NCBI GenBank assembly: GCA_016937295.1
Contig: JAFGWF010000099.1
Span: forward strand, 1 to 53,311
DNA from: Bacteroidales bacterium
GTDB lineage: Bacteria > Bacteroidota > Bacteroidia > Bacteroidales > UBA1556
DNA: 53,311 bases
Direction: 5' to 3'
Shown: in pieces, positions 9,190 through 53,311 of the stretch
Layout: each line of letters starts with the position of its first letter
Position numbering within the stretch: position 1 is the first letter of the stretch
Notes under the pieces: generated by a model
Told to the model about the DNA's origin: nothing
The model's database searches: none
Seen by the model: only the letters and a program-made list of their open reading frames with translations
Translations under genes and position numbers: made by a program

Positions 9190-9190
9190 T

Positions 9191-13769: not shown

Positions 13770-14430
13770 CCTTATCTTTTCGTTTAAACTTTCCCTCTTC
13801 CCATGCTTTAAAAAATTGTGCCCATGCGAAAGGATTTAACACTGAAATAGGTGCATACTGTCCGTTATAGTAGCTTTTCGACACAACATTACCAATTTGA
13901 TTTCTGAAATTCATCGAACCATCCATTGGCATATTCAATCCAATTTCTCTTAAAGTTTCCCGCTCCAAATTTTTCATCGCACGGTCGTAATCGTTTTCCG
14001 GAACTACGGTATTCACTATGGCAAATTCCAACGCTTCAACGGTTGGCCATGGATAGATAACGGTTTCTTGGAGCAAAATGGTGTCGGTTTGCATCATTTG
14101 ATACATGGAGTAATGGAACGAGCTAAGGGTGTCCGGTATTTTGAATCGGCTGGTTTGATAGCCTTGCGCCGAAAATACGATTACATCTCCGGTATAGGCC
14201 ACAAAGGAAAAAAAACCGTAGGAATTGGCTGCCCCACCACGATTTTCGCCTTCAATTAGAATATTGACAAATCGAATCGGCTTAAGACTGTCGGCGGTAA
14301 GCACTGCCCCCGAAAACTGAATCATCCGTCTATTGGTGTCGCTTTTAGCAGTGGCGTTATTATGCTGTCCAAAAACAATTTGGAAATATAAAAGGAATGA
14401 CAGAAAAAATATGGATGTTTTAAAGTTCAT
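13762..14430 (-). CDS. carboxypeptidase-regulatory-like domain protein
   Basis: 222 aa with a signal peptide and a CarboxypepD_reg-like segment (FSGAVLTADSLKPIRFVNILIEG..). It overlaps the downstream receptor-like gene by 8 nt. Confidence 0.6.
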   Translation of the reverse strand: MNFKTSIFFLSFLLYFQIVFGQHNNATAKSDTNRRMIQFSGAVLTADSLKPIRFVNILIEGENRGGAANSYGFFSFVAYTGDVIVFSAQGYQTSRFKIPDTLSSFHYSMYQMMQTDTILLQETVIYPWPTVEALEFAIVNTVVPENDYDRAMKNLERETLREIGLNMPMDGSMNFRNQIGNVVSKSYYNGQYAPISVLNPFAWAQFFKAWEEGKFKRKDKDD

Positions 14431-14551
14431 TTAGTTGCCGTTTCAATATCAAATGCCAAAGATAAAATGCAAATTGCACAAAAATATCTTCCGGCAAAAT
14501 TATTCAAAATCACTAACCTTAAAGTTTGATTTTTATTTTGATATGTTTTAA

Positions 14552-16606: not shown

Positions 16607-16671
16607 TGTTTTGAAAAAAGATTTGTAACTGCTTTGAATAAACATCGACTTATAATTCTTTGATTCTTAGT

Positions 16672-18735: not shown

Positions 18736-18750
18736 AATCTTTTCGTTTTA

Positions 18751-19821
18751 TTAGTTACATTGCCCTTTAAAATAGCTTTGAGCAATCTCGATTCCAAGAG
18801 AATAGGCTTTTTTCCAGTCGTTGCAGGCTCCTTCTTCATCTCGCAACATTTCTTTTGAGATGCCTCTGTTTAGAAACGCATATCCATAGTTTGGGTCAAT
18901 GTTGATGGCTTTGTCGTAATCTTTGATTGCATCTTCATATTTTTTTTGCTTGTATTTTACGTTGCCTCGATTATTGTAGGCAAATACATAATCACTTTTC
19001 AGTTCGATGGCTTTCGAGAAATCGGCGATAGCTTTCTCATAATCACCCTTGAGCATGTAAACCGACCCACGATTATTATAGGCAATATAATAATCTTTTT
19101 TAAGGGAAATGGCTGAAGTATAATCAGTTATAGCTCCCTCGAGATCGCCTAATTTTTTCTTCACCGTGGCCATATTATTAAAAGCTATCGACATTTGCGG
19201 GTCAATTTGAATTGCCTTGCGATAGTCTTGAAGTGCTTCTTGATATTTCTCCAATTGCCGTTTTGTGCTTCCGCGGTCGTTGTATGCAAAGGCGTAATCC
19301 GGCTTTAGCTCGATGGCTTTATTGTACATCTTGATAGCTTCTTCATAGTTTTGCTTGTCGAAATATACACAACCTGCATAGTATGCGGCTTGAGGTTTTA
19401 AATCCATTTCGGACCCTTGAATACAACTGTTGAAATCTGTTAACGAACCATCCAAATCTTTCATTTCATAGCGTATCAAACCTCGGCTGAAATAAGCTTT
19501 TCCGGTTGGCTCCAGCAAAATGGCCATATTATAATCTGAAATGGCTTCGGCATATTTTTTAAGCTCCGCCTTAGCCGATGCCCTGTTGAAATAGGCTTTC
19601 GCAAAGTTGGGTTTGATAGAAATTGCTTCGTCAAATCGAGAGATGGCTTCTTGGTGTTTGTTTTGCTGAAAAAATACAATGCCCTCATTATAAGTCTTTT
19701 CCGCTTTTTGATCGTCAGCAGCACTGACGGTTTTAATGGTGTCGATTGGTGTGCTGTTTTCTTGTCCTTGAACATAAACCGACAGAATAATACATAAAAA
19801 AACTAAGGTTAGATGTTTCAT
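18751..19821 (-). CDS. tetratricopeptide repeat protein (secreted)
   Basis: The protein consists of consecutive TPR units (AYxNRGxxKxxLxxYxEAIxDYxKAIELxP). The start is placed at MKHLTLVF (signal peptide); the ORF extends to 19860. Confidence 0.85.
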   Translation of the reverse strand: MKHLTLVFLCIILSVYVQGQENSTPIDTIKTVSAADDQKAEKTYNEGIVFFQQNKHQEAISRFDEAISIKPNFAKAYFNRASAKAELKKYAEAISDYNMAILLEPTGKAYFSRGLIRYEMKDLDGSLTDFNSCIQGSEMDLKPQAAYYAGCVYFDKQNYEEAIKMYNKAIELKPDYAFAYNDRGSTKRQLEKYQEALQDYRKAIQIDPQMSIAFNNMATVKKKLGDLEGAITDYTSAISLKKDYYIAYNNRGSVYMLKGDYEKAIADFSKAIELKSDYVFAYNNRGNVKYKQKKYEDAIKDYDKAINIDPNYGYAFLNRGISKEMLRDEEGACNDWKKAYSLGIEIAQSYFKGQCN

Positions 19822-20072
19822 ATTAATATGTTTACTTGTTTCAAAATGGTTTAACAACAAACTACTTCAAAATTGGTTTCAGATAAATGCTGCCAAATTT
19901 TACCATAATATCTGCAACTAAAATTCAAATTTATATTGTTTATTTATTGATTGATAAAGTGTTTCCGTTAAAAAATATCGGGCTAATATACGAACTTTTG
20001 ATTCTGATGTTCGTTTTTTTTTATTCCCCGAAAAACTTACAACATTAAGGTAACAATAATTCATAATGCTTA

Positions 20073-21287
20073 TTATGGAAAAATATTTGTATCGTCTTGA
20101 ATTATAGAGTGTTCCACTGTTAGTTGTTGTAGATTTGTGGAAGTCAATAATTCATAGTTAATTTTAATCCAAATTAATATCATAGGTATTACTTTGATAA
20201 CAAAAGGCTGAAAAAAGTCGGTTCGTATCATTTTAGGAAAAATATCGGATGGGGAAAGAGACGTGAAAACCACCGCTACAACGATCAGCAAAATGTCGAA
20301 GGTGTTTTTTCTCGACAGCAAAAACCAAATTGCTGCTCCGGCAATGGCAATTACAAACGTTGGCGACTCGGCTTTATGATTGAATATTATCACCCAGATA
20401 AGGAGAGATGAAAGATATAAAAGCCTGAAATGTTGACTTTTCCACTCTGAGAACCGAATAAGTGGAGCAATTAATGCCGCTGTTCCGAGAGCTAATACCA
20501 CATTTTTTCCTTGCGAAAGACCAAACCAACTATTAAGCCATCCCATAACAGAAATTCCATAAGAAGCGGAGTGGTCGTTGGCTAACATGATTCCCCAGTT
20601 TTCGTATTGTGTCCATAACGTTTCAGGATTTGTTGCCACAAGTGGAATGAAAAATAAGATTAAAAACCAAACTAAGGAGAAGGCCAATGATTTAAGCTTG
20701 TTTGGATAAAAGAGAAACATCACAAAGGCTACTATGCCAAATATTTTAATAAAAACTGTTGCCATTAAAAAACCGGCGGCGGCAAGCAGGTTTTGCCGTT
20801 CCATGGCGCGCCAACCAAGAATGATTAATCCGGCCATCAAGCCATTGCTTTGGTGGGTTTGAAACGATGTAAGTGCCTCTATAAGAACTAATAACAGTAG
20901 TATTGATGTTGATTTTTTATCCTTAGGAAACACTAAATACAAAGCCCACATCAGCACCACTGCATTCAAAACGTTCCAAAGAATCAAACCAAGCCAATCG
21001 GGCAAAACGGCCAAGCCGCCAAAGAAAAGTGCAAAAGCCGGACTGTATTTGAATAGATCGATATATCTATCATAATGATGAATGTAGAGATTTTCGCCCG
21101 ATAGAAGATTAAAAAACGAATGCTTGAAAATCATGTAGTTATTATAATGCGTATAAAATCCCATCGACTCTGTGGCTGTTTTTGTCAGGAAATAATCTTG
21201 CAAACTGGCAGCAATAGCGAATAGCACATAAACTACCAATATCCATTGGGGATTTTTTAGCAATAATTCTATTTTCGATCGAAGCAT
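20073..21287 (-). CDS. polytopic membrane protein, GT87/DUF2029-like glycosyltransferase family
   Basis: 404 aa with about 10 or more hydrophobic helices. It has the same general architecture as 3116..4402 and abuts valS. Confidence 0.5.
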   Translation of the reverse strand: MLRSKIELLLKNPQWILVVYVLFAIAASLQDYFLTKTATESMGFYTHYNNYMIFKHSFFNLLSGENLYIHHYDRYIDLFKYSPAFALFFGGLAVLPDWLGLILWNVLNAVVLMWALYLVFPKDKKSTSILLLLVLIEALTSFQTHQSNGLMAGLIILGWRAMERQNLLAAAGFLMATVFIKIFGIVAFVMFLFYPNKLKSLAFSLVWFLILFFIPLVATNPETLWTQYENWGIMLANDHSASYGISVMGWLNSWFGLSQGKNVVLALGTAALIAPLIRFSEWKSQHFRLLYLSSLLIWVIIFNHKAESPTFVIAIAGAAIWFLLSRKNTFDILLIVVAVVFTSLSPSDIFPKMIRTDFFQPFVIKVIPMILIWIKINYELLTSTNLQQLTVEHSIIQDDTNIFP

Positions 21288-35612: not shown

Positions 35613-35700
35613 GGAGAGATGCTCGAGTGGTTTAAGAGGCACGCCTGGAAAGTGTGTGTACGCCAAAAGTGTACCGAGGGTTCGAATCCCTCTTTCTCCG
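35613..35700 (+). tRNA. tRNA-Ser (anticodon GGA)
   Basis: I folded the cloverleaf by hand. The acceptor stem is GGAGAGA/TTTCTCC with one G.U pair. The anticodon stem is CACGC/GTGTG with loop CTGGAAA. It has a long variable arm, a T-arm GAGGG-TTCGAATC-CCTC and discriminator G. CCA is not encoded. Confidence 0.9.
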
Positions 35701-42902: not shown

Positions 42903-43637
42903 ATGGTCTTAAATAAGTATAAAATTGTATTAATAATAACTGCTATGGCAATAGTTTTAGTTTATTGTCAAGTTCCAAAACGGGGAGTTAATTCCGTTGA
43001 GTTTAATGATTCAGCTACGTCCGGCAGATTGGTAAAAATTTCGGCTGAGGCCGGAAAGGGTCATAATCACCCATCTTTTGTTATTTGGCAGGAAAATCTT
43101 CAAGGGGAAGTTATGCGCACTTTATTTGTCACAAAGAGCTACGCATCAGGGATATTTGGTCATGAAAATGTGGATGATTCCTTGTGGCTCGATCGTCCGG
43201 GAAAGAGCTATCAACCTTCAGCCTTGCCTTATTGGACTGAACGTAAGGGACTTATTGATGGCAAAACATATATACCAACTCCTGAAAATCCTTATGTAGA
43301 TGCTGTGACCGGAGCCACACCTGAAGCAGGGTTTTCTCTAAAGGTTAGGTTGGAGGCAGTAGCTGGAACGCGAATTTTGATGGAAGTTAACCAAGCGTGG
43401 GACTGGAACGAATACTGGACTAACGACCGCATTCCGAATAATGACGCATACAAACATTCCGCACAGCCTTCCCTAATTTTTGCAGTAACCATCGACACTT
43501 CAGATTCTGTTTTTTATTTGAATCCGATAGGTCATGGCGATCCAACAGGTTCGAGCGGAAAACTTTATACCGACTTAAGTGGTTTTACTACTGCAAGAGA
43601 AATTTTCAAAAATATTAAAATCACCATCGAAAATTAA
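42903..43637 (+). CDS. secreted hypothetical protein, possibly DUF2271-like
   Basis: 244 aa with a signal peptide. FVIWQENLQGEVMRTLFV and DAVTGATPEAG resemble the DUF2271 pattern from memory. Its stop overlaps the start of the downstream receptor. Confidence 0.4.
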   Translation: MVLNKYKIVLIITAMAIVLVYCQVPKRGVNSVEFNDSATSGRLVKISAEAGKGHNHPSFVIWQENLQGEVMRTLFVTKSYASGIFGHENVDDSLWLDRPGKSYQPSALPYWTERKGLIDGKTYIPTPENPYVDAVTGATPEAGFSLKVRLEAVAGTRILMEVNQAWDWNEYWTNDRIPNNDAYKHSAQPSLIFAVTIDTSDSVFYLNPIGHGDPTGSSGKLYTDLSGFTTAREIFKNIKITIEN

Positions 43638-46012
43638 TGACAATGAAAAAGATATTTACGTTAATGCTTTTATTTCTTACGGTTTATTCCTTTTCTCAAA
43701 ATGGCAGAGTCGAAGGGAAGGTAATTGACAAGGAAAACAAAGAGCCCGTAGCATTTGCCAATGTGCAAATTGTTGGAACCACAACAGGAGCTGTAACTGA
43801 TTTAGACGGAAAGTTTATCATCACGGGTTTAAAGCCGGGATATATTAATCTGAAAATCACCTTTGTAGGTTATAAAACTTTTATCACTACCGAAATCTTA
43901 ATCACCAATTCCAATCCGGTTTATCAGGAGTTTGAATTGGAATCTACCACAAAGCAATTGGAAGCCGTTACCATTGTAGCCAATCCATTTGATAAGCGTG
44001 ATGATGCGTTAGTTTCAGTTCAAAGTATTGGTATAAAGGAGATTGAGACTAATCCCGGAGCAAATCGCGACATTAGCCGAGTGATACAGTCATTTCCCGG
44101 TGTGGCTACAACTCCTGCTTTTCGCAACGACATTATTGTACGTGGCGGAGGTCCGAGTGAAAGCCGCTTTTTTCTCGATGGCGTTGAAATTCCTACATTA
44201 AACCATTTTGCTACACAAGGAGCCGGAGGAGGTCCGGTTGGAATTATCAATTCCGATTTTATTGCTTCGGTTGATTATTATGCCGGTTCGTTTCCCGCTT
44301 CAAGATACAATGCGTTGAGTGGTGTGTTTGAGTTTAGGCAAAAGGAGGGTAATAACAAGAAACTCAATGTTCAAGGAGCTTTGGGAGCTAGCGAGGCCGC
44401 CATTACATTCGATGGCCCTCTTGGTAAAAATGCCAACATGATTTTTAGCGTTAGAAGAAGTTATCTTCAATTTCTCTTTTCGGCTTTAGAATTGCCATTT
44501 TTGCCCACATTCACCGATTACCAGTTGAAAACAAAAATCAATCTCAATAAGAAAAATGAGCTTACCATTATCAGTATCGGGGCTTTAGATCAGTTTGCTT
44601 TGAATACCGGAATAAAGAATCCGGATGCTTCGCAAGAATATATTTTGACGCAAATTCCAACTAATAATCAGTGGAGTTATGCCATTGGAGGCGTATGGAA
44701 GCATTTCACCAAAAACGGATTTCATACCTTTGTGCTGAGTAGAAATATGTTGGATAATTCCTTCTTTAAATATCCTGATAATGACGAAACTAAGGCAAAA
44801 ACATTGGACTACACAAGTCAGGAAATTGAGAATAAAGCGCGATGGGAGTTTTCACAAAAACTCAATGGTTGGTCGATTCGTTATGGGTTGAATACCGAAT
44901 TTGCGAAGTATAATAATCAAACCTCGCAGTATGTTTATTTGAATGATTCCTCATTTTTTTACAACTACCAATCGGAGATGAATTTGGTAAAATTTGGGGG
45001 TTTTGGTCAGGTATCGAGACGAGTTGCCAATGAAAAGTTATTGATTTCGTTGGGCTTGAGAGCCGATGGAACGAACTTCAACAAAGTGATGTCGAATCCT
45101 TTGAATCAACTATCGCCAAGGATTTCGTTTGCTTATAGTCTCGACCAAAACACCAAGATCAATGCAGGTGTGGGAAGATATTTTCAGTTGCCGGCTTATA
45201 CCACCTTAGGATATAAAAATGATGCAGGCGATTTCTTGAATGAGGATGTGGAATACATTGGAGCTAATCATTTTATTCTTGGAGCTGAAAGGACTTTTAA
45301 GGATAAAGCCCTGCTTTCTGTTGAAGGATTTTATAAGGATTATTTTCAATATCCTATCAATAAATTCACCGGATCGAGTTTGGCCAATAGTGGTGCCGAT
45401 TACAGCAGTGTAAGTGGAGCTACCGAAGTGTTGTCCATCGGAAAAGGCAGAGCGGTTGGTGCCGAGCTTTTGTATCGATTACGATTAAAGACTTTCTATA
45501 TTATTGCTGCTTATACCTTTGTGCGTTCCAGTTTTACGGATACAACGGACACCTATATTCCATCTTCCTGGGACAGTCAGCATTTGCTTACGCTCACCGG
45601 AAGTAAGGAATTTAAGAAAAATTGGGTCTTAGGGTTTAAATGGCGTTTTTCGGGTGGATTGCCATATACGCCTTACGATTTGGCCACTTCATCCAATATC
45701 CAAGTTTGGAATGCTTTTAATCAGCCTGTTTTCGACTATTCCAAACTCAATGCCGAGCGTTTCGATCCGTTCCATCAATTGGATATTCGAGTAGATAAAA
45801 GGTTCTATTTTGAGAAGCTGACCTTGATGATTTATTTTGATATTCAGAATGCTTATAATTTTAAGAACAAAGGACAGGACTATGTTATTCGGGCAAAAAA
45901 TCCGGATGGAAGTTTTCAAACCACCGACAATGGGACGAAATATGTGCTTACCCCTATCGAAAATATTTCGGGAACTGTTTTGCCAACATTGGGGTTGATG
46001 GTGAAGTTTTAG
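43637..46012 (+). CDS. TonB-dependent receptor (CarboxypepD_reg - plug - barrel)
   Basis: 791 aa with a signal peptide, CarboxypepD_reg (VEGKVIDKENKEPVAFANVQI), plug (IVRGGGPSESRFFLDGVEIP) and a barrel ending ..GLMVKF. Confidence 0.9.
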   Translation: MTMKKIFTLMLLFLTVYSFSQNGRVEGKVIDKENKEPVAFANVQIVGTTTGAVTDLDGKFIITGLKPGYINLKITFVGYKTFITTEILITNSNPVYQEFELESTTKQLEAVTIVANPFDKRDDALVSVQSIGIKEIETNPGANRDISRVIQSFPGVATTPAFRNDIIVRGGGPSESRFFLDGVEIPTLNHFATQGAGGGPVGIINSDFIASVDYYAGSFPASRYNALSGVFEFRQKEGNNKKLNVQGALGASEAAITFDGPLGKNANMIFSVRRSYLQFLFSALELPFLPTFTDYQLKTKINLNKKNELTIISIGALDQFALNTGIKNPDASQEYILTQIPTNNQWSYAIGGVWKHFTKNGFHTFVLSRNMLDNSFFKYPDNDETKAKTLDYTSQEIENKARWEFSQKLNGWSIRYGLNTEFAKYNNQTSQYVYLNDSSFFYNYQSEMNLVKFGGFGQVSRRVANEKLLISLGLRADGTNFNKVMSNPLNQLSPRISFAYSLDQNTKINAGVGRYFQLPAYTTLGYKNDAGDFLNEDVEYIGANHFILGAERTFKDKALLSVEGFYKDYFQYPINKFTGSSLANSGADYSSVSGATEVLSIGKGRAVGAELLYRLRLKTFYIIAAYTFVRSSFTDTTDTYIPSSWDSQHLLTLTGSKEFKKNWVLGFKWRFSGGLPYTPYDLATSSNIQVWNAFNQPVFDYSKLNAERFDPFHQLDIRVDKRFYFEKLTLMIYFDIQNAYNFKNKGQDYVIRAKNPDGSFQTTDNGTKYVLTPIENISGTVLPTLGLMVKF

Positions 46013-46076
46013 GAGAATATGCTATAACCATTACATAAGAAATAATCAAAAACAATGGCATAGCATAAAACATTTT

Positions 46077-46152
46077 TGAAGAAAATCCATAGATGAATTT
46101 TTATTAATGGAAACCCCGTAAATACGGTTCATGAAACGTATTTACGGGGTTT
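46077..46152 (+). repeat. 76-bp direct repeat, copy 1, containing a 36-nt near-perfect palindrome (left boundary of the AbiE cassette)
   Basis: TGAAGAAAATCCATAGATGAATTTTTATTAATGGAAACCCCGTAAATACGGTTCATGAAACGTATTTACGGGGTTT matches 48036-48111 at 73/76 positions. The palindrome at 46114-46149 has one mismatch. A T-rich tail means it could also act as the terminator of the receptor gene. Confidence 0.9.
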
Positions 46153-46322
46153 TCAATTACCAAAATCGGTTTTTCGTGAACGTTAGGCATTATCCAATCC
46201 TGCACTCCTCAATTAATCTCAATTCTGATTCACCGGTTCACAATTGCTCGGGATTTTAGAGTAAGATGATTTTCAATCGGGATTGGAAAATCGGTTATTT
46301 TATGCTGGCATTTTCAATGTTT

Positions 46323-47324
46323 TTATTCATCGGGCTTTATATTTAATTTTCTTATTCGATTTGTTAGTTCCAACATTCGGGTCAATAATTCCTCAAATGT
46401 TTTTTTTGATTCGTCATAAATAAAACTTTCACGTAAGTTTTCGTAATCATTTCTCCAATTGTTTTGCAAGTTTTCTGGAGGACAAATCTGTATTTGATCA
46501 GGATAATGTGTTCGATAATCTATACTTTGAATATTGTTGAATTTTTGTCGGTGTTTGATTATGGTCTTGTACAATTCGGAGTTTTGCAATGCCGATTCTG
46601 CATTCGGGCTATCCATCATTTTTTCTAAATCGTATAAATGCCTCGACATTCTCTCTGAGCGTGGATTTTCTTTTTGATATTCTTCGTGCAATAAAAATAT
46701 CTTTTCTAAAAAAGTACGTTCCGGCAATACAGTTTTAAACAAACATTTTATTTCATTATCTATTTTCGGATACTGAGAGTGAATAAATGTGGTAATTGCT
46801 TTATCAGAATTGGGTTCATTTAGCGACATTGCACTAAATTCAATTTTCACAACAGGTAAAATATAATCAATTACCGTGGGAAGAATGCTTTTGTATCTCA
46901 CTTCAATAGTTACGATCATTGCACTACTGTTTTGCGTAATAAGTTCTATTTGATAGCTATGTATTCCGCGCGAAATCAGAATTTTATCAATCTCTGTTAT
47001 CAATGTTTCTTTTACGTAATGAAATGCGTTTCGGCGAATTGCCGTTCTTTGTTGGGTGGTTTCTTCGGGTAAGTCAAAGTATGAGCGGCTTATTGCTATG
47101 TCAATGTCTTCACTGAAACGATTAATCAGTCCCCAAGCCTTGCTCAAAGTAGTTCCGCCTTTGAATTGCAAAAAATCAGCCCACGACGTTTTTGACAATG
47201 CCATTAATATAGCACATACCCACCAATCTTTTTCAATCGCCTGCTCAACAATTTTTTTCGTTCCTGCCGTTTGTTGAAGCATGACAAGTCTTTCGTCTTC
47301 ATTATATTGAAACCAAATGCTCAT
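46323..47324 (-). CDS. abiEii: nucleotidyltransferase AbiEii/AbiGii-family toxin (type IV TA / abortive infection)
   Basis: 333 aa with the hallmark FKGGTTLSKAWGLINRFSEDIDI motif and a later RHLYDL motif. It overlaps the upstream antitoxin gene by 4 nt (ATGA). Confidence 0.9.
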   Translation of the reverse strand: MSIWFQYNEDERLVMLQQTAGTKKIVEQAIEKDWWVCAILMALSKTSWADFLQFKGGTTLSKAWGLINRFSEDIDIAISRSYFDLPEETTQQRTAIRRNAFHYVKETLITEIDKILISRGIHSYQIELITQNSSAMIVTIEVRYKSILPTVIDYILPVVKIEFSAMSLNEPNSDKAITTFIHSQYPKIDNEIKCLFKTVLPERTFLEKIFLLHEEYQKENPRSERMSRHLYDLEKMMDSPNAESALQNSELYKTIIKHRQKFNNIQSIDYRTHYPDQIQICPPENLQNNWRNDYENLRESFIYDESKKTFEELLTRMLELTNRIRKLNIKPDE

Positions 47325-47947
47325 TCTGTTATTTTTTTAATGATTGGTAGAAGCAATTCTTTAATCCAAACAGGAGATAAGTATAAGTCGTTCATCATTG
47401 TAGTCCTTTCGTCTGTTTTACTCTCTGAAATAAGACTTATGATTTTATTCCTGATTTCGTTCGTAACACGACTTTCGCCAAGTTCTTTTAAAGCGATGAT
47501 TATTAGAGGCAAAAGTTTACCTTTAAATTGGAAGTTTTTTTGAACGGCATTTTTAAAAATAATGGTTCTTTCCCCAACTTTTACTTTTCGTTTTGCGCCG
47601 TTAGTTATATAAACAGCGTTCATCGGGACTTGGGTAGAAAATCCAAGAATATTCAATGCTGTATCGCCCGTTGGCATAATTTGGGCTTTGTCGCGTTCGG
47701 CAATCTTGTGGGCAATTTGATCTAATGTTGGGTATAAAATACCAAACTGAGTATGTTTAGGATTCATATAAATGCCTGTAGCCACACGAACAATTGCGCC
47801 TTCGTTTTGCAAACGCGATAGCGTTCTTGTAACCAGATTATCGTTATTAACATCCTCAAAATCATTAATTGTAAACAATTCTCCGACTTTGATATTTAAA
47901 ATCCGGTCTCTTATAATTTGAGAAATACTGTATTCCATATTTTGCAT
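47321..47947 (-). CDS. abiEi: AbiEi-type antitoxin / DUF6088-like transcriptional regulator
   Basis: It has an N-terminal winged-helix-like region (TRTLSRLQNEGAIVRVATGIY) and is translationally coupled to the AbiEii gene. The start is placed at MQNMEYS (47947). The ORF-track start at 48091 runs through the flanking repeat. Confidence 0.75.
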   Translation of the reverse strand: MQNMEYSISQIIRDRILNIKVGELFTINDFEDVNNDNLVTRTLSRLQNEGAIVRVATGIYMNPKHTQFGILYPTLDQIAHKIAERDKAQIMPTGDTALNILGFSTQVPMNAVYITNGAKRKVKVGERTIIFKNAVQKNFQFKGKLLPLIIIALKELGESRVTNEIRNKIISLISESKTDERTTMMNDLYLSPVWIKELLLPIIKKITE

Positions 47948-48035
47948 CAATAATATGTCTGAAATATTCGGTAAATTTCGGACAAAATTACGATTTTTTT
48001 TGATATTACCATCACTGTTGAATTTATAAAAAAAA

Positions 48036-48111
48036 TGATGAAAATCCATAGATGAATTTTTATTAATGGAAACCCCGTAAATACGGTTCATGAACCGTAT
48101 CTACGGGGTTT
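48036..48111 (+). repeat. 76-bp direct repeat, copy 2 (right boundary of the AbiE cassette)
   Basis: It differs from 46077-46152 at 3 positions. The palindrome at 48073-48108 has one mismatch, at a different position from copy 1. Confidence 0.9.
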
Positions 48112-48177
48112 ATTTAGTTTTAATGAAACCACACGAAACCCCGAAAGTTTTCGGGGGTGCGGTAGCGGGGTAGCGGG
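48112..48177 (+). repeat. REP-like element, nested-hairpin variant
   Basis: ATTTAGTTTTAATGAAACCACACGAAA-CCCCGAAAGTTTTCGGGG-GTGCGGTAGCGGGGTAGCGGG has the same 5' flank, outer stem and GGTAGCGGGG tail as the REPs around the RAYT gene. The loop is replaced by an extra hairpin. Confidence 0.8.
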
Positions 48178-48265
48178 ATATAATCCTACGATAGAGAGAT
48201 TGGATTTTTTGAAACAAATCGATAAATAATTATCTAAGAATAAGTACCTTTGCTCGCATTAATTG

Positions 48266-48273
48266 TATATTTG
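48266..48273 (+). promoter_or_regulatory. candidate Bacteroidota -7 box (TAnnTTTG) for the RhuM/Doc gene block
   Basis: TATATTTG lies 25 nt upstream of the ATG at 48299. Confidence 0.35.
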
Positions 48274-48298
48274 CTATCCTAATTTTTGACTGTAAAAG

Positions 48299-49279
48299 AT
48301 GGAAATTCAGAATAAAATTGAGATATATCAGAGTGAAAATAAGCAGACTGAAATTGCAGTACAGTTTGATAAGGAGACTGTTTGGCTTGACGCTCATGTA
48401 ATCGCACAACTATTTGATGTACAACGACCTGCTGTTGTGAAGCATATTAATAATATCTTCAATTCAGGTGAACTACAAAAAACATCAACCTGTTCCATTT
48501 TGGAACAGGTTGCTGCTGATGGTAAGAATCGTAAAATGAAATTTTACAATCTGGATGTAATAATTTCTGTTGGATACCGAGTAAATTCAACTAAAGCAAC
48601 CCAATTTCGTCAGTGGGCAACACAACGTTTAAAAGACTATTTGGTTAAAGGATATGCAATTAATGAGCAACGTTTGGAGCAAAAGCAACAAGAAGTATTG
48701 CATCTCAAAACCGGAATACAGATTCTTAGCCGTGCTATTGAAGCCCAAAATAAAAACAAAGACAATGAAATTCTAAGCATTTTCGCTAAAGGTTTAGAGT
48801 TGCTCGATGATTACGATCATGAAGAATTAGACGTATTAGGTCAAACTACGAAGGAAACTATTTTTCCTACTTATGAAGAATATCTTGATTTTATTGGCGA
48901 CATGTATTCCAATTATGAGAGTGATGTGTTTGCGAAACCTAAAGATGAAAGTTTTCATAGTTCGATAAATCAAATTGCACAGACTTTTGAAGGGAAGGAG
49001 CTTTATTCAAGCATTCAAGAAAAGGCTGCAAATTTGTTGTATTTTATTGTGAAAAATCATTCATTTGTGGATGGAAATAAACGAATAGCAGCAGCCTGCT
49101 TCCTGCTCTTTCTTGATAAAAATAATGCACTTATGAAAAGCAATAATGAATCAATAATCAGTAATGAAGCCTTGGCTTCTCTTACACTTTTTATTGCCAC
49201 AAGTAAGTCGGAGGAGGCTGAGGTTGTTAAACGATTTGTAATAAGTATTTTGAACCGGAGTACCAGTCAGAGCTTATAG
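48299..49279 (+). CDS. RhuM-family N-terminal domain fused to a Fic/DOC (death-on-curing type) domain
   Basis: The N-terminal 125 aa match the RhuM pattern (..KFYNLDVIISVGYRVNSTKATQFRQWATQRLKDYLVKGY..). The C-terminus carries the Fic/Doc motif HSFVDGNKR (nt 49058-49084). Confidence 0.85.
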   Translation: MEIQNKIEIYQSENKQTEIAVQFDKETVWLDAHVIAQLFDVQRPAVVKHINNIFNSGELQKTSTCSILEQVAADGKNRKMKFYNLDVIISVGYRVNSTKATQFRQWATQRLKDYLVKGYAINEQRLEQKQQEVLHLKTGIQILSRAIEAQNKNKDNEILSIFAKGLELLDDYDHEELDVLGQTTKETIFPTYEEYLDFIGDMYSNYESDVFAKPKDESFHSSINQIAQTFEGKELYSSIQEKAANLLYFIVKNHSFVDGNKRIAAACFLLFLDKNNALMKSNNESIISNEALASLTLFIATSKSEEAEVVKRFVISILNRSTSQSL

Positions 49280-49323
49280 AATATTAGATTCATTGAGGAT
49301 ATAATTTAAAAGATTTATAGAAT

Positions 49324-49956
49324 ATGGCAACAGAGATTTATTACGAAAACAGGTATAACGTGTCTATAACTGAACAACAGTTAGTAAGCATGGATGTATT
49401 TAAAAAAATCACTACTGTAGATGGGATAATAAAAAAAATAGAATCCTATAAAAATAATATAATAACAGGTATTGAATATTATCTTGATGATGGTGAAGAT
49501 GAGACAACTGTTTTGGGAGGATTAGTAATTTTGGTTTCAAATAGTGTATCTATTATTGAACGAGAAACCTATCTAAACTATAGAATAGAAAGAATAAAAG
49601 TGTTTTTTAATAGCAGTCTAAAGTTTAAATCAAATTTGCTGTTCGATTCAAATAATAATTTAGTTTGTGAAGAAGAAATCGATATTTCAACTGACCAACC
49701 AATTTATAATCAAACGGAGAAAACATTATATGATTCAAATAACGAGAAAATACTCGGGTTCGATTATAATGCTGATGGAAGTATTGAGAAAATATGGGGC
49801 ATAATGGTTGAGGACAGATTAATATACAAGGACCTTGGATCTGTTTGGCCTGAGCAGTCATTAAGTGCTGAAAAGATAGATGATTATTTCCCAACACTTT
49901 TAAGTAATAATCCATATTATTCTGATGCTACATTTTTACCAGCGGCAATAGTATAG
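49324..49956 (+). CDS. hypothetical cytoplasmic protein, family A copy 1 (no recognised domain)
   Basis: 210 aa with no signal peptide. It is a paralog of 50101..50691, with nearly identical termini (MATEIYYEN.Y..ITEQQL ... NNPYY.DAT.LP). Confidence 0.6.
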   Translation: MATEIYYENRYNVSITEQQLVSMDVFKKITTVDGIIKKIESYKNNIITGIEYYLDDGEDETTVLGGLVILVSNSVSIIERETYLNYRIERIKVFFNSSLKFKSNLLFDSNNNLVCEEEIDISTDQPIYNQTEKTLYDSNNEKILGFDYNADGSIEKIWGIMVEDRLIYKDLGSVWPEQSLSAEKIDDYFPTLLSNNPYYSDATFLPAAIV

Positions 49957-50100
49957 AATAAATAGGTGAGGATTAAAGAATTATATTAATTTGGAAATTA
50001 ATGAGCAATGAGACAGATATTTTTTAAAAAAAAACTGTGAATTAAATAGCCCTCAACATAGTATTAATTAGACAACAATAATACATTATAATATTAAGAT

Positions 50101-50691
50101 ATGGCAACAGAGATTTATTACGAAAACAGTTATGACAAACCTATAACTGAACAACAATTGGGACAAATGACAGATTACAATAAAGCTATTAAAATAGATG
50201 GAGCTTTAAAGCTGAAAGAAATTTTTACTAAAAACAATCTAGTCTTTATTTCTTATTACAAAGATCAGAATGAGAGTGAGACTGATGCAATTAATTTTAT
50301 AATTACTCAGTATTCTGGTATTGCATTTGAAATAATTGACAAATCAACATCAGGGGCTTTTACTATTGAAACAGTTAAAGGATATGATAAAAATGGTGTT
50401 TTTGATCCTTATGAACGAATTTCTTTATATGACTCCCAAGGGAGGATGATTTATGAAAAAGAGGCAGATGATATTGAAGTAACAATTATGAAGTGGTATT
50501 ACTCATATTTGGGTCATCCTCTTAGATGCAAGTACAATGAAGATACTGGATTGATTGAAACTGTTGATATGATAAGTGCAGAGGATGAGAATACACCAAT
50601 TGAAATTTTTCTTAATAGAATTATGCCAGACTTCCTTAACAATAATCCTTATTATGCTGATGCTACTCTTTTGCCTTCAGGAAAAGTATAA
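50101..50691 (+). CDS. hypothetical cytoplasmic protein, family A copy 2
   Basis: 196 aa. Its first 29 nt are identical to those of 49324..49956. The C-terminal NNPYYADATLLP is conserved and the middle is divergent. Confidence 0.6.
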   Translation: MATEIYYENSYDKPITEQQLGQMTDYNKAIKIDGALKLKEIFTKNNLVFISYYKDQNESETDAINFIITQYSGIAFEIIDKSTSGAFTIETVKGYDKNGVFDPYERISLYDSQGRMIYEKEADDIEVTIMKWYYSYLGHPLRCKYNEDTGLIETVDMISAEDENTPIEIFLNRIMPDFLNNNPYYADATLLPSGKV

Positions 50692-50735
50692 AATGATATT
50701 ATTTAATCAATTGTAATAACAACAATTATAATATT

Positions 50736-51227
50736 ATGAAAGAAATAGAAATTAAATACAATAGTCAAAGGTTCTGGATAAAGGAATATTTTATCGAACT
50801 TTTAAGTCAGTATATTTGTGAAACTTTTGAAGAAATTGGTCTTTCAAGTTTTAATACTATATTAACAGGTATTTACGATGACTGTGACATGAACAGAAGC
50901 GGGGAAGCTTGTCAAAGTGTTAATATTTTATTAGATGATATTGTTAATACATCTGATAAGATTACAATGATAAGTGTATTGCAACAATCCAAAATTCGAG
51001 TTCTTTCTTTAGGGAATGAATTAAGTGTTTTCACGTTAAATGAATTTGAAAATAATAAGACAGATGATTCTTTTAAGCATCCATGGGAAATAGCTGTAAA
51101 AACACAAAGTCTTGCTGCTACAATTGACTTTATAATTGATCTGCTTAATGGGACATTTCAGTATCATAATAGAATGATTCATTACATAAATTTCCCTAAT
51201 CCTAACAATGCTTACATAATGGTTTAA
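50736..51227 (+). CDS. hypothetical small cytoplasmic protein, family B copy 1 (immunity-protein-like)
   Basis: 163 aa with no signal peptide. It aligns without gaps to 51255..51746, with 105/163 identical positions by hand count. Confidence 0.6.
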   Translation: MKEIEIKYNSQRFWIKEYFIELLSQYICETFEEIGLSSFNTILTGIYDDCDMNRSGEACQSVNILLDDIVNTSDKITMISVLQQSKIRVLSLGNELSVFTLNEFENNKTDDSFKHPWEIAVKTQSLAATIDFIIDLLNGTFQYHNRMIHYINFPNPNNAYIMV

Positions 51228-51254
51228 TAAGATAAATCTTAAATCAATAATAAT

Positions 51255-51746
51255 ATGAGCCAAATAATAATTAAATACAATAGTCAATGTTTTTGGATAA
51301 ACGATCATTTTATTGAGCTTTTAAGTCAATATATATGCGAAACTTTTGAAGATATTGGGCTTTCAACTTTCAACTCAGCATTATCTAGGATCTATTTTGA
51401 CTGCGATTTTAATAGATCTGGTGAAGCAATTCAAATGGTTAGCATAAGATTAGATAATATAATCACTCAAAATGATAAAAACACATTAATAAACATTTTT
51501 CTACAGACAAAAACAAGAATACTTGCTTTAGGAACTGAACTAAGCATTTCTCAATTAAATGCATTTGAGAACAATAAAACTGATGATCTGTATAAATTAC
51601 CTTGGGATTTTCCTGTTAAAACACAAAGTTTAGCCACCACGCTAGATTATATTATAGACTTATTAAATGGCACCTTTCAATATAATAATTATGGTATCCA
51701 GTACATAAATTTCCCCAATAATAGTGGTGATTATTTAATGATTTGA
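51255..51746 (+). CDS. hypothetical small cytoplasmic protein, family B copy 2
   Basis: 163 aa and a paralog of the preceding gene. It starts 27 nt after that gene's stop. Confidence 0.6.
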   Translation: MSQIIIKYNSQCFWINDHFIELLSQYICETFEDIGLSTFNSALSRIYFDCDFNRSGEAIQMVSIRLDNIITQNDKNTLINIFLQTKTRILALGTELSISQLNAFENNKTDDLYKLPWDFPVKTQSLATTLDYIIDLLNGTFQYNNYGIQYINFPNNSGDYLMI

Positions 51747-51778
51747 AATAATATTAGACTGTCTTAAATTTATAATAT

Positions 51779-51867
51779 CCCCCGCTGCCGCACGAATCCT
51801 TTCGTGTGGCAATACTCCCAGCTGCCGCACGAAACCTTAGTTCGACAAAGCCAATCCTTTCGTGTGG
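51779..51867 (-). repeat. two REP elements in inverted orientation upstream of the RAYT gene (short form 51779-51809, long-loop form 51817-51867)
   Basis: The reverse complement of 51779-51809 is CCACACGAAAGGATTCGTGCGGCAGCGGGGG, one mismatch from the downstream REP core. The second copy keeps the outer stem CCACACGAAA/TTTCGTGCGG around a 23-nt insert. Confidence 0.85.
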
Positions 51868-51901
51868 CTATAAAAAAAAGAAAACCAATTAAAATATTTT
51901 T

Positions 51902-51909
51902 TACTTTTG
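51902..51909 (+). promoter_or_regulatory. candidate -7 box (TAnnTTTG) immediately upstream of the RAYT start
   Basis: TACTTTTG ends 4 nt before the ATG at 51914, which would imply a leaderless or near-leaderless transcript. Confidence 0.3.
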
Positions 51910-51913
51910 AATA

Positions 51914-52471
51914 ATGAGCCGAAATTATAAATTTCATAATCCTAAAGGAGTCTATTTTGTAAGTTTTGCAGTAATAGAATGGTTGGATGTGTTTACTAGA
52001 AATGAGTATAAAGAGATATTTTTAGATTCTTTGAGATTTAGCCAACAGAATAAGGGCATGGAAATATTTGCATGGTGTATTATGACAAACCACGTACATT
52101 TAGTATTTAGAAGTTGCAATGATATAAAACCAGAAACAATGTTAGGTGATATAAAGCGCTTTACAAGTCGAAAGATAGTTTCAGCGATAATTGAAAATCC
52201 AAAAGAAAGCAGAAAAGATTGGTTATTGCAGCAATTTAGAAAAGAAGCAGAAAAGTCGAGCAATGTAAATCATTATCAATTTTGGCGACATGATAATAAG
52301 CCTATTGAACTTTGGAGCAATAAGGTGATTTCTGAGAAAATCAAATATATTCATAATAATCCAGTTAAAGAAGGATTGGTATATAAACCTGAAGAATATA
52401 TTTATAGTAGTGCAAAAGATTATGCTGGAGAAAAAGGAGTTTTGGAAAATGTTATTTGTGTTGATATTTAG
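51914..52471 (+). CDS. REP-associated tyrosine transposase (RAYT; IS200/IS605-like Y1 HUH enzyme)
   Basis: 185 aa with an HUH motif (NHVHLVF) and a C-terminal catalytic-Tyr region (PEEYIYSSAKDY). It is flanked by inverted REP hairpins. Confidence 0.85.
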   Translation: MSRNYKFHNPKGVYFVSFAVIEWLDVFTRNEYKEIFLDSLRFSQQNKGMEIFAWCIMTNHVHLVFRSCNDIKPETMLGDIKRFTSRKIVSAIIENPKESRKDWLLQQFRKEAEKSSNVNHYQFWRHDNKPIELWSNKVISEKIKYIHNNPVKEGLVYKPEEYIYSSAKDYAGEKGVLENVICVDI

Positions 52472-52563
52472 TTTTAATGAAACCACACGAAAGGATTCGT
52501 GCGGTAGCGGGGTTGATATTTAGTTTTATTGAAACCACACGAAAGGATTCGTGCGGTAGCGGA
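52460..52563 (+). repeat. two tandem 52-bp REP units
   Basis: The unit is GTTGATATTTAGTTTTAWTGAAACCACACGAAAGGATTCGTGCGGTAGCGGR. The two copies differ at 2/52 positions. The core hairpin is CCACACGAA-AGGA-TTCGTGCGG with a fixed A.C mismatch. The RAYT stop codon (52469-52471) lies inside unit 1. Confidence 0.9.
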
Positions 52564-52608
52564 GCAATTTTATAATTAGGAATTAATATATTATTTAAAT
52601 AAATATTT

Positions 52609-52965
52609 ATGAGCGTTATAGAAAATTATAAAGTAAGATTTTATATTTCTGATCTTGTTGGCGCAGCCATTAAGACTAACAATGGACTTTTAAGTTCGTT
52701 TATTTGGGAATATTGTGATTCAGACGAAGCAATCGATTTATTGGATGCAATAAATGATGTGTTAAATGGAAGCCTAACTATTGCTGATGGTGTAACTCAA
52801 GGCTTAATATTTGTAAAGATTTTAGCAAATACTACGAGTCTTTACAAAAATGCCGATGCATATTTTGAAGATGAAACGATTGCTCCTGATTATACAATTC
52901 CCACTACAGATTTAAAAGAAATTGTGGAAGCATGGTTAGATTATCTTAGTAGGGTATATGAATAA
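52609..52965 (+). CDS. hypothetical small acidic cytoplasmic protein (immunity-protein-like), gene C
   Basis: 118 aa with no signal peptide and no recognised family. It is bracketed by double-REP direct repeats. Confidence 0.55.
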   Translation: MSVIENYKVRFYISDLVGAAIKTNNGLLSSFIWEYCDSDEAIDLLDAINDVLNGSLTIADGVTQGLIFVKILANTTSLYKNADAYFEDETIAPDYTIPTTDLKEIVEAWLDYLSRVYE

Positions 52966-53003
52966 AAGGATAGGTTTAAGATATTTTATCATGCTGAATT
53001 TGA

Positions 53004-53115
53004 GTTATTTGTGTTTATAATTAGTTTTATTGAAACCACACGAAAAGGATTCGTGCGGTAGCAGAGAGATTTAGTTTTATTAAAACCACACGAAAGGATT
53101 CGTGCGGTAGCGGGG
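53004..53115 (+). repeat. double REP preceded by a copy of the RAYT 3' tail (direct repeat of 52451-52563)
   Basis: GTTATTTGTGTTTATAATTAGTTTTATTGAAACCACACGAAAAGGATTCGTGCGGTAGCAGAGAGATTTAGTTTTATTAAAACCACACGAAAGGATTCGTGCGGTAGCGGGG aligns to 52451-52563 with about ten differences, including small indels. Confidence 0.85.
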
Positions 53116-53206
53116 TCTATTTTGTAAGTTTTGCAGTAATAGAACGGTTGGAGGTGTTTACTAGAAATGAGTACAAAGAAATATTTTTAGATTCTTTGAG
53201 ATTTAG
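53116..53206 (+). pseudogene. 91-bp fragment of a RAYT gene (equivalent to ORF nt 38-128)
   Basis: It matches 51951-52041 at 87/91 positions. It has no start codon and is bounded on both sides by REP units. Confidence 0.85.
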
Positions 53207-53293
53207 TTTTATTGAAACCACACGAAAGGATTCGTGCGGTAGCGGGGGGGAAAGGATTGGCTTCGCCGAACTAGCGTTTCGTGTGGTAGCGGG
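53198..53293 (+). repeat. REP unit (53198-53250) followed by a long-loop REP variant lacking its 5' stem arm (53250-53293)
   Basis: GAGATTTAGTTTTATTGAAACCACACGAAAGGATTCGTGCGGTAGCGGGGGGG is followed by GAAAGGATTGGCTTCGCCGAACTAGCGTTTCGTGTGGTAGCGGG. The latter is homologous to the reverse complement of 51817-51867. Confidence 0.8.
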
Positions 53294-53311
53294 CGGTGAG
53301 GAGAAATTCCC

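Follow-up and report, generated by a model that had tools for sequence, protein, structure and literature searches.

A REPtron and its REP hairpins among horizontally exchanged genes at the end of a Bacteroidales contig

Results

The sequence examined, contig JAFGWF010000099.1 of a Bacteroidales bacterium (assembly GCA_016937295.1; UBA1556), covers positions 1-53,311. This stretch, the window, is apparently the entire contig, so that the array described here is cut off by the assembly break at 53311. An earlier note had described 46077-53311 as gene blocks punctuated by hairpin repeats, and its coordinates and layout hold up on re-analysis. Ten REP-family hairpins are present; they are confined to 48126-53293, the first 48 kb being free of them, and lie in an island with a GC content of 0.28-0.35 compared with 0.39 +/- 0.03 for core genes. 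Pfam and NCBIfam searches found no recombinase domain among the ORFs of 46-53 kb, the contig ending at 53311. The statement that hairpins bound every gene block is true of the RAYT gene and of gene C individually, but RhuM-Fic, A1, A2, B1 and B2 form a single block: neither repeat searches nor R1, a covariance model built on the REP hairpin and its tail, revealed hairpins between them.

The RAYT gene (51914..52471, + strand) encodes an apparently intact Y1 HUH protein of 185 aa, as the earlier note had supposed. It scores 87.4 bits against NCBIfam REP_Tyr_transpos (NF047646; cut-off 80 bits) and 2.4e-8 against Pfam Y1_Tnp, and carries an HVH motif at residues 60-62 (NHVH) and YIHNNP at 145. 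An assignment to IS200-type TnpA was rejected (NF033573 transpos_IS200, 25.9 bits; cut-off 55). RAYTs in 25+ genome loci share 65-77% amino acid identity with this protein. The gene is flanked by inverted REPs at 51778-51870 (-) and 52480-52566 (+), an arrangement also seen in 25 other loci, and the locus is thus a REPtron, an element type that has been described before.

R1 detected nine REP copies in the window, all between 48126 and 53249, and none in 1-48125, in agreement with the earlier note, which had noticed no core in the preceding 46 kb. The tenth, a 5'-truncated long REP at 53250-53293, was recognised on visual inspection and corresponds to inverted repeat I2. The exact 22-nt core CCACACGAAAGGATTCGTGCGG occurs five times, always within 51788-53239 (expected 0). 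The hairpin has an 8-bp stem with an A/C mismatch, a folding energy of about -8 kcal/mol and 97.7% of cells paired; it is backed by a compensatory A-U to G-C change in five sequences and followed by a conserved 3' tail, NAGCGGGG. Since the foot sits 3' of the hairpin rather than as a 5' GTAG, the REP is atypical; atypical structures are known for RAYT subclass 2.6 (PMC6006769). The shared 5' flank does recur, with six copies of TTAGTTTTAWTGAAACC from 48114 to 53219, but it consists of the stop codon of RAYT and a spacer of 14 nt. REP copies contain between 7 and 60 nt of RAYT 3' coding sequence: those in the window have 7, 11, 21 or 60 nt, and in L018, L057 and L092 the length is 7-44 nt (L numbers denote loci used for comparison).

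The leftmost REP (48112..48177, +; R1 28 bits at 48126-48172) is a variant whose loop holds a nested hairpin, and it carries 7 nt of the RAYT 3' end. It forms the left edge of the RhuM-Fic/A/B block. Upstream of RAYT lie an inverted REP with an exact core (51778..51812, -; 57 bits) and a long-loop variant (51815..51870, -; 38.7 bits) also found in L050, L062 and L196. Downstream there are two direct REPs at 52480..52566 (+; 57.5 and 52.1 bits), the flank of the first containing the RAYT stop codon, and two more at 53004..53117 (+; 41.4 and 56.1 bits), of which the first includes 21 nt from the 3' end of the RAYT coding region. The last pair, a REP followed by the truncated long REP (53215..53293, +; 59.8 bits; I2), folds weakly (z +0.3) and ends 18 nt before the contig does.

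Between these pairs lies a RAYT 5' fragment (53112..53206, +; direct repeat D3) that corresponds to gene nt 34-128 and is 95% identical to 51947-52041. It meets the next REP flank through a 9-nt overlap, GAGATTTAG, and its right junction recurs in L190 at 8749-8815. Elsewhere, L074 and L097 contain tandem RAYT copies, and L187 (9661-9900) holds an internally deleted REPtron with both ends kept.

Far from being peculiar to this locus, the REP belongs to a phylum-wide family. At least 120 loci from many Bacteroidota genera have the same 22-nt core, on several contigs per genome (e.g. JAOXRU01, RCZH01, JANQKR01); among the 120 loci listed, 38 contain a RAYT or a fragment of one. On the one contig from the source organism, REPs occur nowhere outside 48-53 kb. 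In each contig examined REPs were restricted to the RAYT/cargo zone and not scattered through ordinary intergenic DNA, in line with the earlier note; R1 gave no matches in 642 kb of control loci, nor within the initial 9.6 kb of L187.

At its left end the region contains an AbiEii-family nucleotidyltransferase toxin gene (46323..47324, -; Pfam PF08843, E 2.8e-31) and a DUF6088/AbiEi-like putative antitoxin gene (47321..47938, -; PF19570, E 3.2e-51; 29 bits against NCBIfam TAA_AbiEi, cut-off 150). The pair is bracketed by a 76-bp direct repeat (D4, 96% identical; both +), with copy 1 at 46077..46152 (hairpin 46111-46152) and copy 2, confirmed by alignment, at 48036..48111. The hairpin of copy 1 separates the TonB-dependent receptor gene from the convergently oriented AbiEii gene. 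This repeat had been counted with the REPs among hairpins sharing the 5' flank, but it does not belong to the REP family: its stem is 19 bp long with a dG of -20.5 kcal/mol (z -6.2) and has A- and T-tracts, and it is not picked up by R1. Only its pre-hairpin flank is weakly like the REP flank, with a score reached by 37 of 2000 shuffles. We regard it as a distinct, terminator-like hairpin that was probably duplicated upon insertion of the AbiE pair; a simple terminator scan did not call copy 1.

The main block opens with a RhuM + Fic/Doc fusion gene (48299..49279, +; Pfam RhuM 5e-27, Fic 3e-12; DOC_P1 41 bits, cut-off 38.65), which is 86% identical in amino acids to its L190 counterpart (dS 0.26). 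The remaining genes are ORFans. A1 (49324..49956, +; a family of 5 proteins in 5.8e9) shows 94% nucleotide identity to L196/L197, in another context, with dN/dS 0.31, and its paralogue A2 (50101..50691, +; 36% aa identity to A1) is 98.4% identical in nucleotides to L191 (dS 0.036). B1 (50736..51227, +; 13 proteins) has a structure model with pLDDT 89 that matched no PDB fold; its paralogue B2 (51255..51746, +; 64% aa identity) lies in a module, 51235-51779, that is 88% identical in nucleotides to L198-L200 and stops exactly at a REP. C (52609..52965, +; 3 proteins in 5.8e9; dN/dS 0.39; dS 0.28 against >2.5 for housekeeping genes) is also linked to the right end of the REPtron in both L187 and L188. 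Searches of A, B and C against Pfam, NCBIfam and PDB folds gave no match, and the immunity-like character suggested earlier for the cargo is putative. Cargo dN/dS is 0.16-0.41, and the AbiE pair, RhuM-Fic, A, B and C are probably real, selected genes, a view that we hold jointly with the overall reading given below.

RhuM-Fic, A, B and C recur on other contigs at 83-98% DNA identity in unrelated contexts, and these copies mostly adjoin REPs or REP/RAYT debris. Cargo dS is 0.04-1.0 against 2.5-3.5 for housekeeping genes, consistent with the idea of fast-turnover cargo in that the genes are horizontally exchanged. Among homologues found by protein similarity alone, REPs were neighbours in five of eight contexts and REP/RAYT debris in a sixth. 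In L190 the entire 3.3-kb insert lies between housekeeping genes, with REP remnants in direct orientation at its two ends, L198 has one B2-like gene with REPs on either side, and L196 and L199 show a similar REP-flanked arrangement. Homology breakpoints fall exactly at REPs at 48177, where similarity to L190/L191 begins, at 51779 and at ~51866.

These arrangements would fit a mechanism in which RAYT cuts and rejoins ssDNA at REPs and any REP-REP segment can be excised and inserted anew at a different REP, making the locus an HUH cassette array for the capture of TA, Abi and ORFan genes; the repeats may possibly serve as such a platform. The breakpoints at 48177 and 51779 are predicted by REP-based exchange as well as by our preferred reading. 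However, REPs mark several swap boundaries, not all. Hairpins are absent from the breakpoints of the A1 indel (49382/50099) and of a B-B indel that distinguishes L190 from L191, and the left boundary of B2 (51235) and the right boundary of C (52984) are not at REPs. The reading in the earlier note is supported in part. Since these indels are hairpin-free, hairpins are unnecessary for cassette-level exchange, which breaks the analogy with an integron-like array, as does the fact that most genes are not bounded individually. Also against a cassette array, B homologues in L192 and L193-L195 have no REP within 12-20 kb, A1, A2, B1 and B2 lack separating hairpins, and genes are often cut short where they meet REPs (X in both L187 and L190, C in L189 and, by comparison with L062, a 239-aa gene in L044), which resembles damage rather than precise exchange. 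On balance we regard it as an improbable account of this locus.

It does gain from patterns in other genera, where REP-punctuated arrays of ORFan or defence-type genes recur beside RAYT. In L057, as here, the genes 3' of RAYT are co-oriented with direct REPs between them. REP-bounded genes elsewhere are mostly of the same type: 22 of 30 lack any Pfam domain, and KwaB, ORF6N and Rce1-like proteins are among the others. REPs with one end fixed and the other variable would likewise suit one-ended HUH mobilisation.

Discussion

REPtrons are described as elements that do not transpose as a unit, their RAYTs being single-copy and vertically inherited (PMC6006769, PMC5581495, PMC8266576). The RAYT found here departs from such a single-copy, vertical, non-mobile ('domesticated') gene: a RAYT remnant with REPs and C shows 87% nucleotide identity between hosts whose housekeeping dS exceeds 2.5, tandem copies exist, and its GC is 0.30 against 0.39 for the core. 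The closest relatives are nevertheless REPtrons, particularly subclass 2.6 of Quentin et al. (Bertels group 5) and those of Marinomonas, in which REPs are locally concentrated near a recently arrived RAYT (PMC8266576); REP concentration beside a RAYT has thus been published before. Shared features are a Y1 HUH protein of 185 aa that exceeds the REP_Tyr_transpos cut-off and contains NHVH and YIHNNP, REPs that flank the gene in inverted orientation and are concentrated beside it and, with subclass 2.6, REPs without the canonical 5' GTAG foot. Unlike in known REPtrons, the REP core is identical across Bacteroidota orders rather than species-specific, REPs punctuate ORFan/defence gene arrays, and the REPtron and its debris have moved horizontally, occur in tandem and have given rise to derivatives with internal deletions.

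Other systems match in part. As in IS200/IS605 elements and PATEs/MITEs, a Y1 transposase lies between hairpins, internally deleted derivatives keep both ends (as in L187), and outer ends are fixed while inner breakpoints vary; unlike in IS200/IS605, the hairpins are in inverted orientation instead of sharing a strand, and multiple identical full copies were not seen. With integron arrays (IntI, attI, attC) the locus shares co-oriented small genes between imperfect hairpin-forming repeats, hairpins recognised as single strands, and cargo rich in TA and unknown-function genes; it differs in having no tyrosine recombinase or attI among the 46-53 kb ORFs, up to the contig end, in addition to the unbounded genes and hairpin-free exchange noted above. 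Acinetobacter dif modules are bounded by pdif/XerCD sites on plasmids and recombined by host XerC/D (PMC13141974, PMC6449649). They too are discrete accessory modules, including TA, with short repeated sites at their edges and shuffled contexts, whereas here the sites are chromosomal REP hairpins adjoining an HUH enzyme. ISCR/IS91 rolling-circle elements and Helitrons encode HUH enzymes of the Y2 Rep-like type, have defined ori and ter ends, and capture adjacent genes by one-ended transposition. They resemble this locus in the HUH enzyme and in one fixed end with variable adjacent DNA carried, but no ori/ter ends or long read-through products were shown here. Finally, the rAID arrays of Bacteroidales are recombinase-associated orphan-immunity arrays with a tyrosine recombinase. 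The likeness lies in small, paralogous, horizontally shuffled genes in Bacteroidota, and in a toxin-immunity-like layout in L193, where a B homologue comes immediately after a 916-aa protein of no assigned family (in L193-L195 it begins 5 nt after it); the difference is that no tyrosine recombinase is found here and A, B and C match no immunity family or fold.

We favour, with a probability of roughly 0.55, a REPtron that moves horizontally and whose REPs have multiplied locally in a hypervariable accessory island. The final 7 kb would be an acquired AT-rich island around a RAYT of a Bacteroidota-rich subclass, with the cognate REPs on both sides of the gene and their tails outward. The remaining REPs would be the REPtron's own ends, multiplied locally; right-end copies share a constant hairpin/tail end and differ in how much RAYT 3' coding sequence they carry. 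REP junctions would act as illegitimate joining sites that leave truncated genes and RAYT fragments, and the small genes are swapped one by one among diverged Bacteroidota, with pieces of the REPtron co-travelling. An IS-like mobile REPtron rearranging a hypervariable region would thus produce hairpin punctuation with no dedicated integron-like capture site. We infer that RAYT catalyses the local multiplication and the junctions. Such IS-like behaviour would depart from the literature, and a handful of metagenomic contigs point to it. Counting against this reading, REPs accompany unrelated ORFan modules in several genera, which exceeds what simple local multiplication predicts.

Alternatively, the island could move or recombine through another process, for instance natural transformation coupled to homologous recombination, or through an integrative element or IS lying past the contig end, with REPs as tolerated hitchhikers that accumulate in dispensable DNA. 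IS1595 and IS4-type transposases adjoin cargo homologues in L187, L189 and L199, an integrase or IS could follow beyond 53311, the hairpin-free indels show ordinary recombination shuffling these genes, and a role for REPs as sites of homologous recombination has been suggested (PMC3390384). We nevertheless doubt this explanation: the REPs are copies of REPtron ends with RAYT-derived flanks, and RAYT fragments at junctions point to REPtron-specific activity; the same architecture surrounds RAYTs in many genera; and in Pseudomonas recently acquired DNA is REP-poor, not REP-rich (PMC3390384).

A broader proposal, in our estimate unlikely, is that this RAYT family and its REP constitute a Bacteroidota-wide HUH/ssDNA gene-shuffling system. 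If that were so, REP-bounded segments with small ORFan, TA and defence genes would undergo excision and re-insertion at other REPs, and cassette-like arrays would be built beside RAYT and spread between genera.

A REPtron within an array of REP hairpins

An earlier note on this DNA had described hairpin repeats and a resident RAYT as a possible gene-capture cassette array (46077-53311), and the sequence of 46013-53311 agreed with the layout that it gave. The exact core CCACACGAAAGGATTCGTGCGG occurred five times, all in 51788-53239 (0 expected by chance). Diverged REPs in two contigs carrying relatives of the cargo gene B2 (L198 and L199) were missed by a regular expression, and a covariance model of the REP hairpin and 3' tail (R1, built from alignment A4) was used instead, together with nhmmer. 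R1 gave nine matches in the window, all within 48126-53249, and none in its first 48 kb, in keeping with the note's remark that the core had not been noticed in the preceding 46 kb. A tenth REP, of the long type and 5'-truncated, lies at 53250-53293. As the window seems to be the whole contig, the array is presumably cut off by an assembly break. The sole match in an Rfam scan was a tRNA at 35613-35700. Unrelated to the array, adjacent paralogues of ~690 aa at 14552-18735 share 83 nt at 75% identity (D5).

The REP has an 8-bp stem containing an A/C mismatch and an AGGA loop, after which comes a conserved tail, NAGCGGGG. Among 55 distinct copies, 97.7% of positions were paired, and five sequences had compensatory A-U to G-C changes at one pair. 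Their foot is on the 3' side of the hairpin, whereas canonical GTAG REPs have it 5'. The RAYT itself (185 aa; 51914-52471, forward strand) scored 87.4 bits against the NCBIfam model for REP-associated tyrosine transposases (curated cut-off 80). It failed the IS200 model and was rejected as an IS200 member. Its HVH and YIHNNP motifs fit subclasses 2.6 and 2.4, which are rich in Bacteroidetes (PMC6006769); "atypical" structures have been reported for subclass 2.6 REPs (PMC6006769), and the 3' foot agrees with this. Since the RAYT gene is flanked by inverted REPs with their tails pointing outward, the unit is a REPtron.

REP copies carry pieces of the RAYT gene

The 5' flank that the repeats had been said to share was indeed present (six copies of TTAGTTTTAWTGAAACC, spanning 48114 to 53219), but its origin is the RAYT gene: it corresponds to the stop codon (TAG) and a 14-nt spacer leading to the first REP downstream. 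Several copies extend further into RAYT 3' coding sequence, by 7 nt at 48111, 11 nt at 53196 and 21 nt at 53004, by 60 nt at position 11056 of L187, a contig bearing a homologue of gene C, and by 7-44 nt in the genome loci L018, L057 and L092. These varied lengths indicate that the REP copies descend from the right end of a REPtron, the outer end being fixed and the inner end variable.

Parts of the 5' end of the gene are also present as copies. One of 95 nt, from RAYT nt 34-128, occupies 53112-53206, and its junction with a REP (at 53198), GAGATTTAG, is identical in L190 (8749-8815), a metagenomic contig with related cargo. Short RAYT 5' fragments, the smallest covering aa 1-26 and the largest aa 1-67, adjoin REPs in many genomes (L003, L049, L058, L069, L081 and L083), sometimes in tandem (L058, L081). 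L187 has, at 9661-9900, a REPtron with an internal deletion, made up of the upstream REP, RAYT nt 1-44 fused to nt 470-558, and the downstream REPs. A clean insertion of the window's REPtron after B2 was no more than hinted at by ~14 nt of continuing similarity, a score reached by 35 of 500 shuffles. Whole-REPtron tandem duplications were seen in L074 (5053-7685) and L097 (424-2556), and between the L074 copies lie small genes for a 147-aa and a 156-aa protein, one of which is DUF3592.

A distinct 76-bp repeat brackets the AbiEii/DUF6088 pair

The earlier note had counted the 76-bp direct repeat (46077-46152 and 48036-48111, 96% identical) among the hairpin repeats that share the 5' flank. Membership of the REP family was rejected, as R1 does not match the repeat and its stem is different: 19 bp, near-perfect (dG -20.5 kcal/mol) and set between an A-tract and a T-tract. 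The sequence before the hairpin weakly resembles the REP flank (37 of 2000 shuffles). Judged by its fold and flanking tracts, the hairpin appears terminator-like; a simple terminator scan did not call it.

The two copies bracket the AbiEii gene (46323..47324, reverse strand) and the DUF6088/AbiEi-like gene (47321..47938, reverse strand), and include 34 nt of non-hairpin sequence. Removing this pair with one repeat would place the terminator-like hairpin of the TonB-dependent receptor gene (43637..46012) beside the REP at 48112. The only contig found that is identical (100%) to the receptor gene region ends at the 76-bp hairpin (L001, Logan SRR13394436, 9513-9622), where the assembly breaks off; its end does not represent a different junction. 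The public read set would contain the same or a very close strain.

The cargo consists largely of rare genes

The recognisable cargo comprises AbiEii, the DUF6088 protein and a RhuM + Fic/Doc fusion (48299..49279, forward strand). The paralogues A1 (49324..49956) and A2 (50101..50691; 36% identity) and B1 (50736..51227) and B2 (51255..51746; 64%), and gene C (52609..52965), matched no family in Pfam or NCBIfam. Among 5.8 billion proteins the A, B and C families have 5, 13 and 3 members, respectively. AlphaFold models (pLDDT 89 for B and 68 for A) gave no fold match when compared with the PDB by Foldseek (best E 0.02 for A, 0.7 for B), and exact-sequence look-ups of RAYT, AbiEii and C returned 0 matches. 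The cargo genes are real genes, their dN/dS values being 0.16-0.41. The GC content of this AT-rich tail, RAYT included, is 0.28-0.35, against 0.39 +/- 0.03 for core genes.

The sole basis for calling any of the cargo immunity-like was a B homologue that starts 5 nt after the gene for a 916-aa protein in three contigs (L193-L195; JGI 3300024169 and others). There it lies among large proteins (539 to 2100+ aa; 2615-20495) with no Pfam hit on record, alongside MORN_2-like and Endonuclease V genes, and the cluster could represent a toxin or defence locus that has yet to be characterised. The same MORN_2-EndoV pair also precedes an A1 homologue in L196.

REP-bounded arrays recur across Bacteroidota

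At least 120 stretches in the genome collection carry the exact 22-nt REP core, including ones from Flavobacterium, Chryseobacterium, Kaistella, Polaribacter, Croceivirga, Crocinitomix, Bacteroidales, Marinifilum, Prolixibacteraceae, Paludibacter and Chitinophaga; among the matches listed, several contigs of a single genome often carry it. The REP is thus a phylum-wide family and not particular to the window locus. An identical core spans the orders Flavobacteriales, Bacteroidales/Marinilabiliales and Chitinophagales (L002-L121). Hairpin and tail are conserved, and the ~20 nt 5' of them are constant within a genome and different between genomes. Of the 120 loci listed, 38 contain either a homologue of RAYT (65-77% aa identity) or a short piece of its 5' or 3' end, so that REP copies are strongly concentrated around RAYT. 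A similar concentration in Marinomonas REPtrons has been interpreted as the product of a recent arrival and subsequent local multiplication (PMC8266576). Phage carriage was unsupported, as just 4 viral contigs out of 2.9 million had the core; matches in plasmid and phage collections were limited to the conserved RhuM/Fic domain.

In the window and the 120 genome loci listed, 73 intervals of 250-5000 nt are bounded by REPs. RAYT occupies 25 of them and the remainder hold one to five small ORFs. L057 (Polaribacter), for example, has three single-gene units, a RAYT and then a two-gene unit, and other arrays resembling that of the window were found in L018 (Flavobacterium ajazii SSM4.2), L049, L053, L044, L074, L081 and L114. 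Diversity among the ORFs is very high (65 singletons), and 22 of 30 scanned had no Pfam domain; the rest include KwaB (Kiwa defence), ORF6N, three Rce1-like proteins, HEAT repeats and DUF3592. The KwaB gene lies with two small ORFs without a Pfam domain in a REP-bounded 2.2 kb of a Chitinophaga MAG (L012, 5529-7731). A literature search found no paper describing REP-bounded gene modules.

Some, but not all, breakpoints coincide with REPs

The comparison of receptor loci proposed in the earlier note was run, and the orthologues (~60% aa identity) proved too distant for breakpoints; homologues of the cargo were informative instead. Synteny around the metagenomic receptor orthologues was conserved upstream and nothing downstream was in common, which marks the tail as accessory. 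In two contigs that are 99% identical (L190 and L191), RhuM-Fic, A2 and a B pair lie between unrelated housekeeping genes, PRK on one side and DUF1801-TGT on the other, with 83-98% nt identity to the window. Homology begins at 48177, directly 3' of the REP at 48112-48177, and L190 has at the equivalent position a RAYT 5' fragment and then a degenerate REP. On its right side, a small gene, X, is cut by a degenerate long REP. Gene C (87% nt identity) directly follows the deleted REPtron in L187/L188; its dS is 0.28, against 2.5-3.5 for housekeeping genes, and the dUTPase and NTP-transferase on the C-bearing contig show 62-71% aa identity. The B2 module (51235-51779) is 88% identical in L198-L200, its right end falling exactly at the start of the window REP, and L198 has REPs on both sides of the B2-like gene. 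The A1 homologue of L196/L197 (94% nt identity) has two REPs ~200 nt upstream.

X is an N-terminal gene fragment of ~60 aa (MP.E..TPTIIRRYYPTLSSIINSD...NKSPRGD) found twice around a 218-aa ORF in L187 (10874-12235); REP sequence truncates both copies at one and the same codon. L190/L191 have a shorter piece of X after their B genes, and in L193-L195 a 54-aa ORF comes after the B homologue.

Counting only contexts found by protein similarity alone, five of eight had an R1-detectable REP within ~250 nt and one more had debris; the B homologues of L192 and L193-L195 had no R1 match within 12-20 kb. R1 gave 0 matches in 642 kb of control loci, from organisms that may lack the REP, and the within-contig contrast is therefore the fairer comparison: 0 matches in the non-array parts of the cargo-bearing contigs.

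Breakpoints that coincide with REPs, and the recurrence of arrays at other loci, would be expected if a HUH enzyme actively exchanged cassettes, as the earlier note supposed. Other breakpoints make this unlikely. The A1 indel (49382/50099) and a B-B indel between L190 and L191 are free of hairpins, as are the module boundaries to the left of B2 (51235) and to the right of C (52984). No hairpins separate A1, A2, B1 and B2 in the window, and with these indels the strict analogy to an integron-like array had to be abandoned. Per-gene dS values against L190 differ (0.19, 0.26, 0.62 and 1.0), making the block a gene-wise mosaic. Truncated genes stand at many REP junctions (X, the C homologue of L189, RAYT itself and, relative to L062, a 239-aa gene in L044), which looks like illegitimate joining and not precise exchange.

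Hairpin-free indels would also fit REPs that merely accumulate in dispensable DNA moved by other means, and transposase genes of the IS1595 family and DDE_Tnp_1 type adjoin C or B2 homologues in L187 (12276-13343), L189 (624-1541) and L199 (1823-2944). However, such passive accumulation leaves the RAYT-derived flanks and fragments unexplained, and we consider it improbable.

A probable horizontally moving REPtron in an accessory island

We favour, at a probability of roughly 0.55, an IS-like REPtron that moves horizontally and sits in a hypervariable accessory island, with the REPs being local copies of the REPtron's own ends. The REPtron ends would multiply locally to give the island's REPs, and the junctions of these would serve as rearrangement breakpoints. 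Pieces of the REPtron would be transferred together with gene modules, which would also be shuffled by ordinary recombination.

The element is of a known kind, and it is its behaviour that is unusual. REPs are generally described as restricted to a species or genus and as lying in old, stable parts of genomes; the pattern here is the opposite, with a core conserved across the phylum and REPs dense in acquired DNA. In Pseudomonas, by contrast, recently acquired DNA is a "REP desert", and mobile and strain-specific DNA is found in such deserts (PMC3390384). RAYTs are usually presented as domesticated, immobile and vertically inherited (PMC6006769, PMC5581495, PMC8266576), and the horizontal transfer of REPtron pieces is itself a departure from that picture, their debris accompanying ORFan and defence-type genes that are exchanged horizontally. 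Should the association be causal, HUH-based gene shuffling would join the integron, Xer and IS routes, and RAYTs would gain a function. If it is not, the locus would still provide a tractable example of an IS-like, mobile REPtron, together with a means of marking hypervariable accessory loci in Bacteroidota.
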